The position numbers and the translations under genes were made by a program. Positions 18,342 through 46,100 of a stretch of 64,000 bases of DNA are shown piece after piece. The stretch comes from Akkermansia muciniphila (GTDB lineage: Bacteria; Verrucomicrobiota; Verrucomicrobiia; Limisphaerales; F1-80-MAGS106): positions 1,870 to 65,869 of the forward strand of contig CAMBEJ010000007.1 of the NCBI GenBank assembly GCA_945865375.1, written 5' to 3'. The notes under the pieces are model-generated. The model searched no databases and was not told the origin of the DNA. It saw only the letters and a list, made by a program, of their open reading frames with translations. Positions within the stretch are counted from its first letter, which is position 1. Every line of letters begins with the position of its first letter.

Positions 18342-18563
18342 ATGAGAAACCGGATTGAACAAAAGGCGAAGGGATTGGTGCTGGAGGAATTGCGGCATCA
18401 CGGGTGGACGGGGCAGGACATGGAGAAGCAACGCAAACCCCGTGCCGCCAGAGTCAGGATGGCGACGCGATTGAGATGTGAGACGGTGATGGCGTGGGAT
18501 TGGAGTGCGGAACGTTCGCGCTTGGGGTGTCGGCACACCATGGCCAGTTGTTTGAAAGGATAG
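18342..18563 (+). pseudogene. Relic: C-terminal fragment of a Y1 (IS200-like/RAYT-like) transposase-like family common in PVC genomes
   Basis: LRHHGWTGQDMEKQRKPRAARVRMATRLRCETVMAWDWSAERSRLG resembles the family C-terminus (LGWTE.DL..R.KGD..K..IA.RLR.ETTMTL.WIA.RL.MG). No N-terminal catalytic part precedes it. Confidence 0.45.
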
Positions 18564-18607
18564 TATTTTCTAGAATAGCCGCGATTGGTCCCAATCCAAC
18601 GGGGGAA

Positions 18608-18892
18608 TTATCCACCGACTTTGTGGGCCTTGCGTCGGGTGCCGGGCTGGATAGAGACCACGTGGAGAGGATCAATGATGTCCAGCAGCCCTTCGGCATC
18701 TTCGATGACGATGTTGTGGTGGCCAATCAAGACGAATTCGGGATGCAGCACTGGGAACTCCAGGCCATCGGAAGTGCGAATGAGAAATGGACCCTGCCCG
18801 ACCAACTGCTGCCGGATTAATTCACGGTTCAAGCTCTCGTTATCAACGCCTGAGAGCACACCGTCAAGCGTCAAAAAGGAGTCACCAACCAT
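18608..18892 (-). CDS. Hypothetical protein (94 aa)
   Basis: Protein-like composition and no overlap with other calls. No family recognised. Confidence 0.35.
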   Translation of the reverse strand: MVGDSFLTLDGVLSGVDNESLNRELIRQQLVGQGPFLIRTSDGLEFPVLHPEFVLIGHHNIVIEDAEGLLDIIDPLHVVSIQPGTRRKAHKVGG

Positions 18893-19007
18893 GGTTTCCG
18901 GCAGCGTAGTAGCGTGCCCTCAACATGACGAGCAAGAAGCTGGGGCAGGGTGAAAGAGGTCACCCATTGATGTTGATACAGGAGGCGGCACCGGACATTT
19001 TTCCGAC

Positions 19008-19320
19008 ATGCCCCGCAAGTTGAGAGTCGAGTATCCCGACGTGATAAATCGCGTCATGAATCGCGGTGGTGGGAGCGAGCCGGTCTTCAATGATGATGCG
19101 GATCGCCAGTGCTTCATCGAATCCCGCAGGCGAGAGATCGATTGAGGTGCGGGGCGAACTGGCGTTTCTTACTGGCGGAGGGCTTCTCATTCTCGACGTT
19201 CCTGATTCTGGAAGCATCCGGCAAGTAGGTCATGACGCGTCTCTGGAGAGAACCGAACGCGGACTTGCGGTCGAAGGGAATCGTGCCTTGCTGGGAACTT
19301 ATTGGACCGGGCTCTGTTTA
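19008..19320 (+). pseudogene. Relic: frameshifted N-terminal part of a Y1 transposase-like gene
   Basis: The ATG at 19008 gives MPRKLRVEYPDVINRVMNRGGGSEPVFNDDADRQCFIES..., then a stop at 19143-19145. Similarity continues in other frames (ANWRFLLAEGFSFSTFLILEASGK, LLGTYWTG). Compare the family consensus LRLEYPGAIYHVMNRG..REPIF.DD.DR..F....GW.VHAY.LM.NHFHL..ET....LLGTYT. Confidence 0.55.
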
Positions 19321-19438
19321 GTCGGCGATTGCGACAAAGAAGTATTGCGCCCCATGGAACAGGCTTTCAAAGTGCTTTTCGGCGAAGGGAATTTCCTCGG
19401 CGGCAGCATCGTCGGCGAGATTCGACTGCCGATTTCTA

Positions 19439-21582: not shown

Positions 21583-22305
21583 ATGGGTGCCCAGTGGAAA
21601 CAGGCGGGACGCGTCGCGAACGCAACAAAACGGGGGGCGTTGATCGGCAAGATCGTGAAGGAAATCACGGTTGCCGCGAAGGTGGGGGATCCGAACCCGG
21701 AAAACAATCCGCGGCTTGAGGCTGCCGTGGAGATGGCCCGGAAGAACTCGGTCCCACGGGACACCATAGACCGAGCGTTAAAAAAAGGCGCGGGTCTTTT
21801 GGATGAGAAGGTGACCTACGAGACGGTGCTCTACGAGGGATTTGCTCCCTTCAAAGTGCCGGTGATTGTCGAATGTCTCACGGACAATAAGAACCGCACC
21901 GCCTCGGACATCCGGGTTTTTTTCAAGAAAGGGCACCTCGGAAGCATCGGCAGCGTGGCATGGATGTTCGATCATCTCGGGGTTGTGGAAGCCAGGCACA
22001 AGGATAGGACGAAAGATGTGGAGGGAGCTGCCATCGAAGCCGGAGCGCAGAATGTCGAGCCCCTGCCGGCGGAAGAGGAAGGCGACGCCACGGTGGGAGC
22101 CCGGTTCTTCACGGAGCTCACGGATTTGAACGCGGTTGCCAAGGCGCTCTCAGCCGACGGTTGGTCCATCACAGTCTCGGAATTGCGTTATCAAGCAAAG
22201 AACTTGGTGGAAGTGACAAGGGATCAGCGCGCGGAAGTGGTGGAGTTCTTGACCGAAGTGGACGAGCACGACGACGTCCATCGGGTTTACGCGGCTCTGA
22301 AGTAG
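21583..22305 (+). CDS. yebC: YebC/PmpR-family transcriptional regulator
   Basis: MGAQWKQAGR..., NPRL..A...A...S.P...I..A and an ...HDDVHRVYAALK terminus. Confidence 0.9.
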   Translation: MGAQWKQAGRVANATKRGALIGKIVKEITVAAKVGDPNPENNPRLEAAVEMARKNSVPRDTIDRALKKGAGLLDEKVTYETVLYEGFAPFKVPVIVECLTDNKNRTASDIRVFFKKGHLGSIGSVAWMFDHLGVVEARHKDRTKDVEGAAIEAGAQNVEPLPAEEEGDATVGARFFTELTDLNAVAKALSADGWSITVSELRYQAKNLVEVTRDQRAEVVEFLTEVDEHDDVHRVYAALK

Positions 22306-40431: not shown

Positions 40432-41082
40432 TTACCGCGACCCTGTTTTATCCGTGTGATCCGTTCGCGCGGATCGGGACCGGGTCCGGACTTTGGCAAG
40501 CGATTCCTTTGTGATCACGCCGGCGGAAAACAGTTTTTCCGCGTGCGACAACTGGCGCGCGCCCACGCGGTTTGATTTCGACCGGTTCAATTCTTGGGGC
40601 AGCATTTCAAGATTGGCCAGTTCATTGCCCGCTTCAGGGGCTAGGCTGTAAGGCACGATGTGATCGATCTCGACCTTGGTTCTCGCGTAAGGGCCCTTCG
40701 TGATTACGCCCGCTTTTCCATTCCGTAGCAGGTTCCCGTTGTTCTCCTCAAAAAGGCCCAAGCCGCGCGCAATGTTGAGATTTCGGAGGAGCGATTCCTT
40801 TATCAGGCTCGCACGGGTATCGCTGGTGCCATGGATGAATTGTGCCATGCCAATCGCGGTTTCAGGTGGCACAAGCCGCTGGTCCGCCACGTGCAGCCAA
40901 TAGACGATCTTATTGAGTCGAGGGTTGGCCCCTCGCTCGCCGAGGGTGGCCAGCTTGGCTGGATCGCTCAAGCTGGCGATGGCGTAAACGGCTTGGAATG
41001 GGCCGAACTGCCAAAGCAACCCGCCTGCGAAGATTCCAATGAGACAGAAAAGTGAGCGCGCTTTGCGCCGGTGTTTAGCCAC
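40432..41082 (-). CDS. Membrane-anchored HNH endonuclease-domain protein
   Basis: GTG start. One N-terminal TM (LFCLIGIFAGGLLW). HNH signature EIDHIVP...GNELANLEMLPQELNRSK. The last ~12 codons are encoded by a dispersed repeat. Confidence 0.65.
   Translation of the reverse strand: MAKHRRKARSLFCLIGIFAGGLLWQFGPFQAVYAIASLSDPAKLATLGERGANPRLNKIVYWLHVADQRLVPPETAIGMAQFIHGTSDTRASLIKESLLRNLNIARGLGLFEENNGNLLRNGKAGVITKGPYARTKVEIDHIVPYSLAPEAGNELANLEMLPQELNRSKSNRVGARQLSHAEKLFSAGVITKESLAKVRTRSRSARTDHTDKTGSR
40447..40464. repeat. Solo copy of the TTTATCCGTGTKATCCGT repeat
   Basis: 17/18 identical to 16743-16760. Lies inside the 3' end of the HNH ORF. Confidence 0.6.
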
Positions 41083-41232: not shown

Positions 41233-41478
41233 TCACGACGATTTATCCGGCTCCAAAGCACGCTTCACAGCGATCAGAACATCTCCATTTTGTGGGAGCA
41301 AAAACCACCCTTTCTGAGCGATGATAAGGTCGCCAAGCAGAACCTTGTACTCACCCGTGGAACCATGCACAAGTTCCGCTTTGATACCCAATTGCTGCTG
41401 GAGGAGTGCGGCCAAACTGGCCGCACGTTCGCGATAAGACCCTCAGATCTTGCAATGGCGAATGGTCACCGTATTCAT
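41233..41478 (-). CDS. SelW/Rdx-family selenoprotein (81 codons, UGA-Sec at 41443-41445)
   Basis: ATG at 41478, in frame with the 60-aa track ORF, gives MNTVTIRHCKI-U-GSYRERAASLAALLQQQLGIKAELVHGSTGEYKVLLGDLIIAQKG.... This carries the CxxU redox motif and the Rdx-like layout, with a SECIS-like hairpin downstream. Confidence 0.7.
41406..41426 (-). promoter_or_regulatory. Bacterial SECIS-like hairpin
   Basis: On the mRNA: GUGCGGCCA-GUU-UGGCCGCAC, a perfect 9-bp stem with a 3-nt G-first loop, starting 16 nt after the in-frame UGA. Confidence 0.6.
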
Positions 41479-41516: not shown

Positions 41517-43127
41517 TTAGCTAAGTTTAAACTTTGAAATGGCGTCCCAAAGCCGGCTCACCGCCTCGGTCAATTGGTCTATGGCCACGTTGGATTGATT
41601 GGCCGCCTCGGCGATCTGCTGACCTGCCTCGCTCAAGTGCGACAAGGCTTCGCTGGTCTGGCGCGCTCCCGTGGCTTGTGCGTTCATGCCTCCGTTGACG
41701 CTTTCAAATCGGGGCGTCAGAGTCTGAACCTGAATGATGATCTCGTTCAGTTGAGTTCCTACCTGTGACACTTCAGTGACCCCCCGGCGCACTTCGTCAG
41801 AGAATTTGTCCATGCCCATCACTCCAGCTGCGACAGCCGATTGCATCTCTTTGACGGTCTGCTCAATGTCGTAGGTCGCCACCGCAGTTTGGTCGGCGAG
41901 ACGCCTGATTTCGGTCGCGACAACGGCAAAACCCCGGCCATACTCCCCTGCTTTTTCCGCTTCAATTGCCGCGTTTAACGAAAGCAGGTTGGTTTGATCC
42001 GCCACCTTCGTAATGGTCGCCACGACTTGATTGATATTCGCCGCCTTCTCATTCAGCACGTTCAGTTTATTGCTGATCGCGGAGGCAGCTTCGGTGATTT
42101 GTCGGATTGTGTGCTCCATTCTCGACAAGGCGGTCTGGCCTGTGTTCGCCAGGGCGGCCGTGTGCTCCGCAACTTTCGCAACCTCCGCCACGGACCGTTG
42201 AAGTTCAATGGATGTCGCCGCGATTTCCTTGGCAGTGGCTCCGATCTCCGTCGTGGTCGCGGCGATCTCGTTTGCGGTTGCCTGCTGCTCACGAGCCGTC
42301 GCCGAGATCTGCGTGAGCGATGTGTTCACCTGAATTCCAGAACGCTGAACCTGCCCCACAAGAACACCCAGATCATCGCACGTACGGTTCAACCCATCCG
42401 CAAGCACACTGAACTCATCCATTCCCTCCACCTTCATTTTTTGAGAAAAGTCCCCGCTCCTCAACCGCTGCATTGCCTCTCCCAGATCGCGAAGCGGCTT
42501 TTGGATTGAATTGTTCAGAGAACGCCCCAGCCACGCGCTCATGATAAGGATCAAAATAATGATCCCAAGACCCACCATCTGAGCTGCACTGGACCTATCG
42601 CTCTGCCGGACCGAGGCTTTCTCAACTCGAATGTTGAACTGAGTGACAAAACGATCCAGATGCTCGCGCGCCAAGAGATAGTCGGTCGCGTAAGTTTCCG
42701 CCGCGCCTGTAGGGTTCTTGTCAAGGAGCTTCATGACCTTCGTGACGGTGACGGTCAGATTCTTGTCATTGTAATCGCTGAGCACGTCCAGCGAGTTCTT
42801 CAGTTCTGATTCACCGGTCGCATCCACCGCCACCCGCATCTCCCTGATGGCTTTGCCCATGTCTGCGTCGCCTTGGCTTTTTCTGCTGTTTTCGACAGTA
42901 CTCCCGGGAGATAGCAAAAGGCCGCGAAGGGCGTCGCTCACCTGCAAAATGGCGTACTTGATCCGGGCAGCATTGAGCAGCAGCTTGTCACGGGTGGCAT
43001 TTGCTCGGAGTTCTTCTTGAGCGAATCGCCGTTCGATAAACCATGAAACGATCTGCCCCACCATCAACAGAGTGATGATCACGAGCAGGGTGGCGGAAAG
43101 CCGACGCGAAAGTGTCCAATTTTTCAT
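41517..43127 (-). CDS. Methyl-accepting chemotaxis protein (two TM, periplasmic helical sensor, HAMP, MA domain)
   Basis: Signalling hairpin motif EQQATANEIAATTTEIGATAKEIAATS...LLSLNAAIEAEKAGEYGRGFAVVATEIRRLADQT. Start moved to MKNWTLSRRL. Confidence 0.88.
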   Translation of the reverse strand: MKNWTLSRRLSATLLVIITLLMVGQIVSWFIERRFAQEELRANATRDKLLLNAARIKYAILQVSDALRGLLLSPGSTVENSRKSQGDADMGKAIREMRVAVDATGESELKNSLDVLSDYNDKNLTVTVTKVMKLLDKNPTGAAETYATDYLLAREHLDRFVTQFNIRVEKASVRQSDRSSAAQMVGLGIIILILIMSAWLGRSLNNSIQKPLRDLGEAMQRLRSGDFSQKMKVEGMDEFSVLADGLNRTCDDLGVLVGQVQRSGIQVNTSLTQISATAREQQATANEIAATTTEIGATAKEIAATSIELQRSVAEVAKVAEHTAALANTGQTALSRMEHTIRQITEAASAISNKLNVLNEKAANINQVVATITKVADQTNLLSLNAAIEAEKAGEYGRGFAVVATEIRRLADQTAVATYDIEQTVKEMQSAVAAGVMGMDKFSDEVRRGVTEVSQVGTQLNEIIIQVQTLTPRFESVNGGMNAQATGARQTSEALSHLSEAGQQIAEAANQSNVAIDQLTEAVSRLWDAISKFKLS

Positions 43128-43195
43128 TGCTGAAGTGTGTGCAACGAACTCATGATAGGCGAACCTCGGGGCGCACACAAGCCAAGAGAACAAAA

Positions 43196-46100
43196 TCAAC
43201 GTTTTGGGGTGATCACCCTGTAAAAGCCCGCCTGACGGATGTCCCAACGGACCCCGCGAGCTTGCTTGGAACTTCCTACTGCCGAATTCAACTCCCATGT
43301 TCCAACGTCCGCGGCATCCCTTCGTTCGATGGAGTAGCTCTTGCCAGGCTGGGCGATGAACTCCACGGACACCGCTCCGTTTGAGTTCAACGTCCAGGAT
43401 AATCGGAGTGTGCTCTCCCGCAGAAAAGGATCCGTCCCCGCCAGAAACTCCTGAAGATTGGTCATGCCGTCCTTGTCCTCATCCAATGAGGCGTCGGCCG
43501 CTTCCGCCGGGTTCAAGCCATGCGCGCGTTCCCAATCGTCGGGGATCCCATCCTTATCCGCATCCAATTCCTCCACGATCCGAGTATTTTTCCCAGGAGT
43601 CGGCACCGCAGCCAACCAATTCCGTGGTTCATTCCCGAAGCCTGTGAGGGACAGGCGCTGCAAAGATCGGGTTTGATCGACCGCTCCAAAGGGCCAGGGT
43701 GACGCTGCGGAGTACGCAATTCTTTCGACCAGTATGGCGGGCACGAATCCTGCATCGGGATGCGGCGGCTGTTGCGGCGGGTCGGGTTTATAGAGTTCCA
43801 AGGAATCGCCGTCGTTGTTGAGTTTGCCTTTGAACGGACCCAGGATCTGTGTTCCGGTTGGGATCGCATATTGACGACGGAACTCACTCAGCAAAGCCGG
43901 GTTGGCAGCCGGATCGAAACCGACCACCAACAGGAACTCCCCTGCCCCCAGGACCGTGGCACCGGGGAACTCAAATTCGATCGCATTGGCCAGTTTCCAA
44001 CGGTTACCCGGGACGGCTGGATCGAACAAAGCCACGGTGGCTGACAAAGGATTATACAACTCAATGAACTCAGGCCCCGCCGATGGCGCGGTGCCAACCG
44101 TGACATCGCTCGCGGAGTAATGAATCTCTGAAATGACGAGTGGCCCGACCTTGGGAGAACTGTTCAACCCACCTCTGCCCAAACGAAATTGCTGGAGCGT
44201 TTGGGGCGTATCAACCCCAAATGAGCGCCGATCCATCGCCACAAATTGCGGGCCAACCGACGTTTCATATCTCCCGAAAGAAACCCCGTTCTCCGAGGCG
44301 CCAAAGGGCATGCGAAGTCTGAGCCCGGTGAAATTGCCCGCCGCATCGGCGGACGACAAGATGGCCTCATCACCATGCGCGGCGTTGAAGGTGAAATCGT
44401 TCGCCGAATCCGTGCTCCGGTTAAATGCAAACTCGTAGAGGACGAGGAATGCGCCCGGAGCCAGGACTGTTCCGTCTGGGATGCGGTATTTTCGAAAGTT
44501 CTTGGGAGCATTGCTCAAGAACCATCCGCTGATGTCAAGAGGCTCCTGTCCCGTGTTCGCGAGCTCGAGAGCATCTTCCAGTGGGGGGTCGGTATGCGCC
44601 AGCACCTCGCTGACAACGAGGCCCGGGGGCAAAGCATAGTTCGCCTCACCCGGACTTCCGCTCCCCGGAAATGCAAGAATCCGCGCGCCGCCATCGGGGA
44701 GACGACCTTGCGAAACACCGATGGCCTGGGAACCGAAGTCCACGGAATCAAGGACTTGAAGGCTCTTGCTTGAGAGCCGGATGGCCCCTCCCAATTCGTC
44801 CAAGTTAAAGCGGAGATGGTTTGGCCCCAGATCGGTTCGTCCGTCCGCTTCGAACACGACCCATCCTCCGGCAGTAATAAAGCTCAAAGACCCGATGACA
44901 AAGTTCGTTTGCCCCGCGATGGAGGGGTTGTCGGTGAGAGCCAATCCTTCCATGTTCAGTGGGGATGTGTCCGAGTTGTAAATCTCCAGCCAGCCCGTTC
45001 CTGACCGAGGTGCCGCCATCCATTCGTTGAGACGGAGCTTGGAGAGGTCTCCTAGGGCTGGAGCGGTGGCATTCGAAGCGCCGGGCGTGGGGTTCGATAG
45101 CAATCCCCAGGCACCATTTGATTTGCCAATGGAAAGGTCCGTGATTTGGAATCCAAAATTCACTGAGTCGACCAACTGATCCGACACATTGAACAAAAAC
45201 AACCCGCCCCCGGAAGGAAGCAAACCGCGACCCAAATGTGGCATATCCAAAACCTTTGTGGATTCGGCTGCGCCGGGATCACAACGGAGCACGAGAAACC
45301 CACCGGCCTGGATCTTCGAACCAGCGGGGAACACCCATTGGCCTGGATTTTTTTCGTTCACGCTCATGCTCATTCCGCTCAAGTCGAAAGCGATGGCTTT
45401 GGGGTTGTATAACTCGACCCACGCCACGGTGCCTGCGTTTGGCAATTTAAACGCTTCCGGTGAAACAAGGACCTCGTTCAACAAAGGGCCATCGTATCCG
45501 GTGAGATAGTTCTTGGCTCCGGGGCTCGCACTCGAAGTGAATCTCTGAATGGCTCCCGTTCCATCCGGGATGCGACCCTCGGAAACACCCTCCATCTGTG
45601 AACCGTAGGTGAGGGTTGAAGCCAGGCTTCCAAGGGAATCGTGGATGACAAGGCTACCCCCGGCCGCTGGCAACTTGAAATCAAGATTCTCAGGCCCGCT
45701 TCCTTCGTCGGCAAAGAGCTGAACAAAGCCTGAGGGCAGCACCACGATGTGGCTCATGATGCGTTCCGTCACAGTGCTTGTCCCCAAATACATGCCAAAA
45801 AGATCTACAGGGAATTGCTTGTCCGAATTGTAGAGTTCGAGCCAATCCGGCTCCCCCGTTATCGCGTTAGCCAGGTACTCATTGATGATCAAGCCGCTTT
45901 GAGACCCCACCTGAGCGGCTTCGTTTGGACCTCCAGGAGTCGGCTTCGCCATCGCCCATCCACCCTCGGCGGAGCGGATTCGGCCCAGGGACACATCAGC
46001 GATCTGAGGTCCGAAGCGCAAGCCGTCCACACGGTTCGTTTTCGAGTCATAAAGAGAGATCGAATCCCCTTTCTTGCTCAGCGCGAAGCCCGTATGGAAC

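Follow-up and report, generated by a model that had tools for sequence, protein, structure and literature searches.

The window analyzed here is the whole stretch of 64,000 nucleotides (64 kb) from contig CAMBEJ010000007.1 (assembly GCA_945865375.1, Akkermansia muciniphila). Its minus strand, from position 41478 to 41233, very likely carries a functional selenoprotein gene whose 81-residue product is SelW-like (Rdx family), and an in-frame UGA together with a downstream hairpin resembling a selenocysteine insertion sequence (SECIS) is predicted, as the most likely interpretation, to encode selenocysteine (Sec). The elements of this gene are as follows.

41233..41478, minus strand: full selW-like (Rdx family) gene, putative selenoprotein gene of 81 codons plus the terminal TGA, with the predicted Sec at codon 12
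41476..41478, minus strand: ATG start codon, 38 nt beyond the stop of the upstream gene for a methyl-accepting chemotaxis protein (MCP)
41452..41454, minus strand: Cys9 codon TGC, first residue of the CxxU redox motif, invariant in 76 of 76 distinct relatives
41443..41445, minus strand: in-frame UGA, predicted selenocysteine codon, residue 12, TGA in 93 of 93 homologous loci
41406..41426, minus strand: SECIS-like hairpin within the coding sequence (CDS), 9-bp stem GUGCGGCCA/UGGCCGCAC, loop GUU at 41415-41417
41401..41445, minus strand: UGA plus SECIS region matched by the family covariance model R1
41233..41415, minus strand: artefactual truncated open reading frame (ORF) of 60 aa with a TTG start, from the ORF list
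41233..41235, minus strand: true stop codon TGA, from the sequence and its translation

Translation through the UGA gave MNTVTIRHCKI-U-GSYRERAASLAALLQQQLG..., a product of 81 residues. The frame is open except for the UGA at codon 12, and 69 codons separate this UGA from the terminal TGA. The gene had been proposed in a first-pass annotation made from the sequence alone, and on re-reading every coordinate and sequence given there for the ATG, the TGA, the TTG and the hairpin was correct. The TTG from which the 60-aa ORF was called is a Leu codon that straddles the hairpin loop and the 3′ arm. Because TGY-N6-TGA is present at 84 places in the window, the motif alone is not significant; the combination of the motif, the hairpin and the conservation in relatives is more than chance.

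An exhaustive HMMER scan, with only the part after the UGA as the query, yielded 24 cluster representatives. Most of them were 54-62 aa long and began exactly at the start of the window's truncated ORF, and the few long representatives carried IRYC-x-x-C or IRYC-x-x-W upstream. A word-indexed homolog search with the single read-through protein returned no match. In a scan of metagenomes 351 relatives were confirmed, the majority of soil origin. The DNA was examined at 93 loci (4 derived from the HMMER scan, 9 from reference genomes and 80 from metagenomes), which had been located with search patterns that left out the UGA codon itself. The nine genome loci were from metagenome-assembled genomes (MAGs) of Verrucomicrobia (2), Acidobacteria type (3), Desulfobacterales type (3) and Dehalococcoidia (1). 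Several relatives thus identified belong to groups known for Sec use; the trait occurs in Acidobacteria, and Deltaproteobacteria are the group richest in it (PMC1794560).

The codon aligned with the window UGA was TGA in 93 of 93 loci, and an ATG or GTG lay ∼11 codons upstream of it in nearly all of them. Among 76 distinct relatives the aligned start was ATG in 66 and GTG in 5. Orthologs starting at the TTG and upstream codons without conservation, two sequence-level outcomes that the first-pass annotation had named as fatal to its proposal, were thus not what was found: Cys9 was conserved in 76/76, Ile6 in 74/76 and Arg7 in 72/76 distinct sequences, and the ten upstream codons varied mainly at the third base (entropy 0.82/0.74/1.35), as did the downstream codons (0.76/0.46/1.44). 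As judged from this pattern, the peptide before the UGA is under purifying selection and in frame with the downstream part. A Cys codon (TGT or TGC) occupied the UGA position in three further loci (L098, L094 and L099). The TGA codons observed here in 93 of 93 loci agree with the reported scarcity or absence of Cys homologs of SelW-like proteins in organisms that use Sec (PMC1794560).

If the UGA were a real stop, the functional products would be an 11-residue leader peptide, the 60-aa protein initiated at the TTG, or both, and hundreds of database calls of 52-62 aa, annotated as 'hypothetical protein', do begin at this point. We consider this very unlikely. The truncated protein lacks strand β1 and the redox motif and has no family match, its apparent start is an internal Leu/Val codon inside the hairpin, and the peptide before the UGA is not only selected but aligns with the β1-CxxC segment of solved Rdx structures. 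The ORFs of relatives are cut short alike, at the equivalent GTG (Val) codon, and the database fragments begin at the same position.

TGA terminates 22 of the 35 confident window genes, being the commonest stop, and the GC content is 57%. These values indicate a genome without a reassigned code, so that read-through would need a dedicated mechanism. In some metagenome gene calls, relatives appear as CxxW or CxxG, as expected if the UGA were read as a standard amino acid, either by a reassigned code (Trp or Gly) or by near-cognate read-through (Cys or Trp). However, the DNA showed that these translations reflect the code table of the callers, TGA also ends the selW-like gene itself, and within the family the UGA falls where the catalytic Cys/Sec is found, all of which makes such decoding extremely unlikely.

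The subfamily of the window protein lies clearly inside the Rdx family by sequence comparison, in keeping with the Rdx/SelW assignment made in the first pass. With U written as C, the window protein matched Pfam Rdx (PF10262) with an E-value of 2e-4 over profile positions 1-52 of 74, and both the Pfam Rdx and the NCBIfam SelT/SelW/SelH matches began at profile position 1 once the N-terminal extension was included; the 60-aa ORF had no family match in Pfam or NCBIfam. Six of the seven aligned subfamily members, to which the window protein is 43-49% identical, matched PF10262 (best E-value 7.1e-11). When the subfamily profile was compared with the Protein Data Bank (PDB), full-length matches were found to 3dex (3.4e-7), 2ljk (MIEN1), 2oka, 2fa8, 2ojl and 2obk, the last of which bears the title 'SelT/selW/selH selenoprotein domain'. 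In the window protein, IRH-C-K-I-U stands directly after β1 and its CxxU aligned with the CxxC of 3dex and 2ljk, the UGA taking the place of the second Cys and Cys9 that of the first; this alignment supports the proposed location of the CxxU at the redox center.

For close relatives, structure prediction gives the thioredoxin-like fold of Rdx proteins. AlphaFold2 was applied to P0027, a naturally occurring Cys form with 44% identity to the window protein; the model had a mean predicted local distance difference test score (pLDDT) of 93.2 and the topology β1-α1-β2-β3-β4-α2, with β1 at residues 4-8, the motif at 9-12 and α1 at 15-30. In a Foldseek search with this model, the top 21 matches were bacterial SelW-related structures or MIEN1, with template modeling (TM) scores of 0.82-0.86 and a root-mean-square deviation of ∼1.8 Å. 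Mouse SelW ranked 22nd, and thioredoxins appeared only later.

The hairpin GUGCGGCCA-GUU-UGGCCGCAC has 9 perfect bp and a free energy of -16.3 kcal/mol. Its stem starts 16 nt and its loop 25 nt from the UGA. No other perfect hairpin with ≥9 bp in the stem and 3-8 nt in the loop exists in the window; the probability that one would lie at a SECIS-compatible distance downstream of a given UGA is thus ∼3e-4. Bacterial SECIS elements are recognized by a small apical loop with a conserved guanosine (PMC1088965). In a gapless alignment of 68 distinct sequences, with column 1 at the U of the UGA, the loop G (column 29) was invariant (68/68). The loop reads CG(U/G)GU in most relatives and GUU in the window, where the G was retained although Arg CGU became Ser AGU.

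Pairing across this alignment exceeded that in column shuffles. In the helix (columns 20-27/33-40) 86.4% of the cells were paired vs. 79.8 ± 0.8 in the shuffles (0 of 500 reached the observed value), and the covariation score was 0.296 vs. 0.175 in shuffles (0 of 500); all slid registers scored lower. Three helix pairs join two codon third positions and are free of protein constraint. The wobble-wobble pair 27-33 was paired in 68 of 68 sequences (C-G in 47, U-A in 19 and U-G in 2), and pair 24-36 in 66 of 68 with five types (C-G, U-G, U-A, G-C and A-U). By parsimony, on a tree inferred from the remainder of the gene, several independent pair changes were inferred. In locus L011, Ser UCG occurs with Glu GAA and keeps the pairing, giving a U-A pair despite the amino acid replacement. 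The window itself has Glu-Arg-Ala-Ala-Ser-Leu where the clade consensus is Pro-Arg-Ala-Ala-Arg-Val; the change of Arg-Val to Ser-Leu (AGU UUG) added an A-U pair and shortened the loop to GUU while keeping the loop G, hence the longer stem and the 3-nt loop. The family mean of the minimum free energy is -10.8, vs. -16.3 for the window hairpin alone.

A covariance model (R1) was built from 55 distinct sequences with the window excluded. It found one significant match in the window, at 41401-41445 on the minus strand (29.1 bits, E-value 2.4e-6), which was full length with all 8 pairs standard; the next best window match scored 9.7 bits. This model also captures coding similarity. The covariation and the covariance-model match support the hairpin of the first-pass annotation, for which 9 bp, a G-first loop and a start 16 nt after the UGA had been correctly given.

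Bacterial Sec insertion depends on SelB, GTP and Sec-tRNA(Sec) acting on a hairpin just after the UGA (PMC1088965). By analogy, when a ribosome stands at the window UGA, the hairpin 16-38 nt downstream would be bound by SelB with GTP and Sec-tRNA(Sec), and selenocysteine would be inserted at codon 12 in place of termination. The paradigm for this decoding, E. coli fdhF, reportedly comes from the Boeck laboratory. From what is known of the family, Cys9 and Sec12 would lie in the β1-α1 loop at the start of helix α1 and would cycle between the thiol/selenol and the selenenylsulfide forms, and the protein would act as a small thiol-dependent oxidoreductase.

Several observations in this and the following two paragraphs weigh against a functional selenoprotein gene. 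No obvious Shine-Dalgarno sequence precedes the ATG. The family scores of the window protein are sub-threshold: 21.9 bits vs. a cut-off of 22.6, just below, for Pfam Rdx; 23.2 bits vs. 34.2 for TIGR02174 (E-value 6.5e-5); and 29.2 bits vs. 88 for NF041051 (E-value 8e-7). The folding energy of the local 66 nt is ordinary when compared with GC-matched shuffles (z = -1.1), so that the argument against chance rests on position and conservation and not on energy. No matching SECIS family was found in Rfam at gathering or permissive thresholds.

The hairpin could also be mainly a by-product of the Ala-Ala-Arg-Val-Ala-Ala codons and no SelB element, with Sec insertion, if any, directed by another signal. 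The string GCN GCN ... GCN GCN is self-complementary, and four of the core G-C pairs of the stem are dictated by the Ala codons (Ala-Ala...Ala-Ala). RNAalifold preferred a register shifted by 3 nt (22-26/31-35), and the Cys form L094 still has the hairpin. The shifted register was rejected, since 70% of its cells were paired vs. 86% and pair 27-33 of the chosen register was never unpaired. Against a by-product, synonymous third positions covary (GCC with GUG, GCU with GUA) to an extent that none of the 500 shuffles matched, pair 24-36 occurs as G-C, U-A and A-U, and amino acid replacements preserved the pairing, both in L011 and in the Ser-Leu of the window. No alternative conserved structure was seen. 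The Cys forms had been expected to lack the hairpin, which held only in part: in L098 and L099, two of the three, the wobble pairs were broken. Both wobble pairs were intact in 66 of 68 Sec forms vs. 1 of 3 Cys forms (Fisher p ∼0.007, calculated by hand on a tiny sample); with the same reservation on sample size, the decay of the hairpin in Cys forms fits a relaxed constraint after loss of the UGA. We therefore regard a mere by-product of coding as unlikely, and a SelB-binding element as the better account of the hairpin.

No Sec machinery was seen in the window. There were no tRNA genes in it, and hence no tRNA-Sec (selC) there, and selA, selB and selD were not among the window genes scanned. 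A search for sel-gene motifs over ∼410 kb (the window plus related loci) found none, although this is a weak test. The flanks of relatives likewise contained no tRNA-Sec, which is uninformative as to its absence. The gene could thus be a relic: with the Sec machinery lost, translation would end at codon 12 and a recent pseudogene would still look intact. Bacteria have often lost selenoproteins and the Sec trait in the course of evolution (PMC1794560), and the window lacks the gene neighborhood of the Verrucomicrobia-like clade (see below). However, lineages that lose Sec usually swap the UGA for a Cys codon or delete the gene (PMC1794560), and in the window the ATG, Cys9, the UGA, the frame and the stop are all intact, with a perfect 9-bp hairpin stronger than that of most relatives. 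The sel genes are not expected to sit near their client genes, so that their absence from 64 kb says little. On balance a relic appears quite unlikely.

These data show that (i) the gene at 41478-41233 is conserved through its UGA, at the level of both protein and hairpin, among relatives of several phyla; and they suggest that (ii) the UGA is most likely a selenocysteine codon. If the gene is a selenoprotein gene, its organism decodes UGA as Sec, and selA, selB, selC and selD are predicted elsewhere in the genome.

The kind of gene is already known. Bacterial SelW-like selenoprotein genes have been known since 2005. Bacterial CxxU SelW-like selenoproteins form one of the most abundant known selenoprotein families, with few Cys homologs (PMC1088965, PMC1794560, PMC2398784). 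This family (PF10262, formerly PF05169; TIGR02174 CXXU_selWTH; NF041051 SelTWH_Campy) is the closest known system, and its abundance, its dedicated NCBI models and its six Cys-form crystal structures make the present finding a new member of it. The window protein and its relatives share with the family the length of ∼75-85 aa, the CxxU after an N-terminal strand, the hairpin within the CDS with its loop G, the large excess of Sec over Cys forms and the predicted β1-α1-β2-β3-β4-α2 thioredoxin-like fold. Unlike the proteins behind the family models it is divergent, falling just under the curated cut-offs. Its clade comes mostly from soil metagenomes and from Acidobacteria and Verrucomicrobia MAGs, whereas the literature cited here stresses marine samples, Deltaproteobacteria and Clostridia. 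In the main texts of BSepDB, deep-Sep and the 2016 ISME survey, SelW and the phyla of the window's clade are unmentioned.

The bacterial Cys-form Rdx structures (3dex SAV_2001, 2fa8 Atu0228, 2obk, 2ojl, 2oka and 2p0g) have the fold of the subfamily model (TM 0.82-0.86) and the same position of the redox motif. They differ in their CxxC, in a length of ∼100 aa that includes additional termini, and in sequence (only 19-29% identity). Mammalian selenoprotein W (2npb) and MIEN1/C17orf37 (2ljk) belong to the same family and fold, with identities of ∼21-24%, and the CxxU of SelW is in the same place. In contrast to the hairpin of the window, which lies in the CDS, the eukaryotic SECIS is in the 3′ untranslated region and has another structure (PMC1088965). 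The E. coli fdhF-type SECIS is, like the proposed element, a SelB-binding hairpin directly after the UGA, but the perfect stem of the window has no bulged U, and its spacing and stem sequence are family-specific, without a match in Rfam.

The somewhat new aspect here concerns how databases represent this subfamily. Of its top 120 clusters (among P0003-P0139), about 100 are fragments of 52-62 aa, each annotated as 'hypothetical protein' and without a Pfam match, in line with the statement in the first-pass annotation that standard callers would miss or truncate the gene. The truncated entries include NCBI nr proteins from Acidobacteriota and Pyrinomonadaceae MAGs (e.g., P0077, P0092 and P0101). 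The false start in the databases is a Val or Leu codon (GTG or TTG) inside the hairpin. The full-length database entries are mostly CxxW or CxxG, the TGA having been read under another code table. Soil bacterial selenoproteins are thus concealed by a systematic error of annotation.

Variants were observed among the relatives. A small clade, on three independent short contigs (L095:58-288, L096:50-304 and L097:354-584), has TGA at codons 9 and 12, IRH-U-x-x-U-AGIA. This UxxU would be of the diselenide type; gene callers gave WxxW, and the same GCC-GYC-CGU-GUG-GCG hairpin lies downstream. The Global Ocean Sampling paper reported UxxU only for a Prx-like family (PMC2398784). The CxxC form (L099:4827-8907 and L094:353-1547) has a one-codon deletion after the motif and a genomic context unlike that of the Sec forms. 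It appears to share an operon with genes for a lipoxygenase (803 aa), a 125-aa protein and a fatty-acid desaturase, the last of which overlaps its 3′ end; P0030, a CxxC form, is placed in such a lipoxygenase/desaturase cluster.

In at least 20 Verrucomicrobia-like soil loci, a gene for a MoeB/ThiF-type adenylyltransferase with a C-terminal rhodanese lies upstream on the same strand, with an 8-nt gap, and nusB and a gene for a PHP-domain protein lie downstream (neighbor identities judged by eye). These loci are L002, L005, L014-L016, L018, L019, L023, L034, L036, L037, L039, L043, L051, L055, L062, L064, L066, L071 and L079, and the neighborhood spans ∼-1160 to -8 and +140 to +800 relative to the gene start. 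The window lacks this MoeB-rhodanese/nusB neighborhood. A conserved stretch occurs right after the selW-like stop in many Verrucomicrobia-like relatives (L005, L006, L017, L036, L037, L043, L055, L062, L064, L066 and others), with in-frame V*TTNGHE, TTNRHE or TTTDEHE; it may represent a repeat, or else a conserved element of intergenic or RNA type.

The window is an ordinary chromosomal region, with genes for alternative complex III, a cbb3-type oxidase, sugar metabolism, the MCP and very large secreted proteins, and a plasmid search gave no match. Two of its other genes are listed here.

41517-43298 (stop 41517-41519): upstream MCP gene, Pfam MCPsignal and HAMP
21583-22302: YebC gene, product 100% identical to the public protein P0140 (NCBI, ENA and Logan); the closest relatives with a name, at ∼70% identity, divide between Oligoflexia/Bdellovibrionales and Verrucomicrobiae MAGs

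A search for a second selenoprotein (in-frame TGA plus redox motif) in the intergenic gaps of the window gave no convincing candidate. A stop-free stretch of ∼100 aa (...MVGDSFLTLDGVLSGVDNESLNRELIRQQLVGQGPFLIRTSDGLEFPVLHPEFVLIGHHNIVIEDAEGLLDIIDPLHVVSIQP) at 18608-18920 on the minus strand, within the 1.1-kb gap 18343-19438, looks like a real small protein between confident genes and is not a selenoprotein candidate. Downstream of the selW-like gene, at 40432-41082 on the minus strand, lies a gene for a 216-aa protein with no Pfam match at an E-value of 1e-5, in which an HNH-like motif (EIDHIVPYSLAPEAGNELANLEMLPQELNRSKSN) and an N-terminal hydrophobic segment were seen by eye.

It is possible, though doubtful, that the window gene belongs to a distinct, near-exclusively Sec-using SelW-like clade that is widespread in soil Acidobacteria and Verrucomicrobia-like bacteria, with its own Ala-Ala-Arg-Val-Ala-Ala type of SECIS, a UxxU branch and one branch closely linked to a MoeB/ThiF-rhodanese enzyme that activates sulfur carriers. 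If true, that linkage would hint at a role in sulfur/selenium transfer and not in general antioxidant defense. Being cut to 'hypothetical proteins' of ∼56 aa, the clade would be nearly invisible in protein databases.

The finding leaves knowledge of how selenoproteins work unchanged. It corrects the annotation, placing an 81-aa putative selenoprotein where a 60-aa orphan ORF had been called. The family alignment and the SECIS covariance model could recover the truncated genes. Since the truncation extends across hundreds of database clusters, surveys that rely on annotation probably underestimate how much soil bacteria use selenium.

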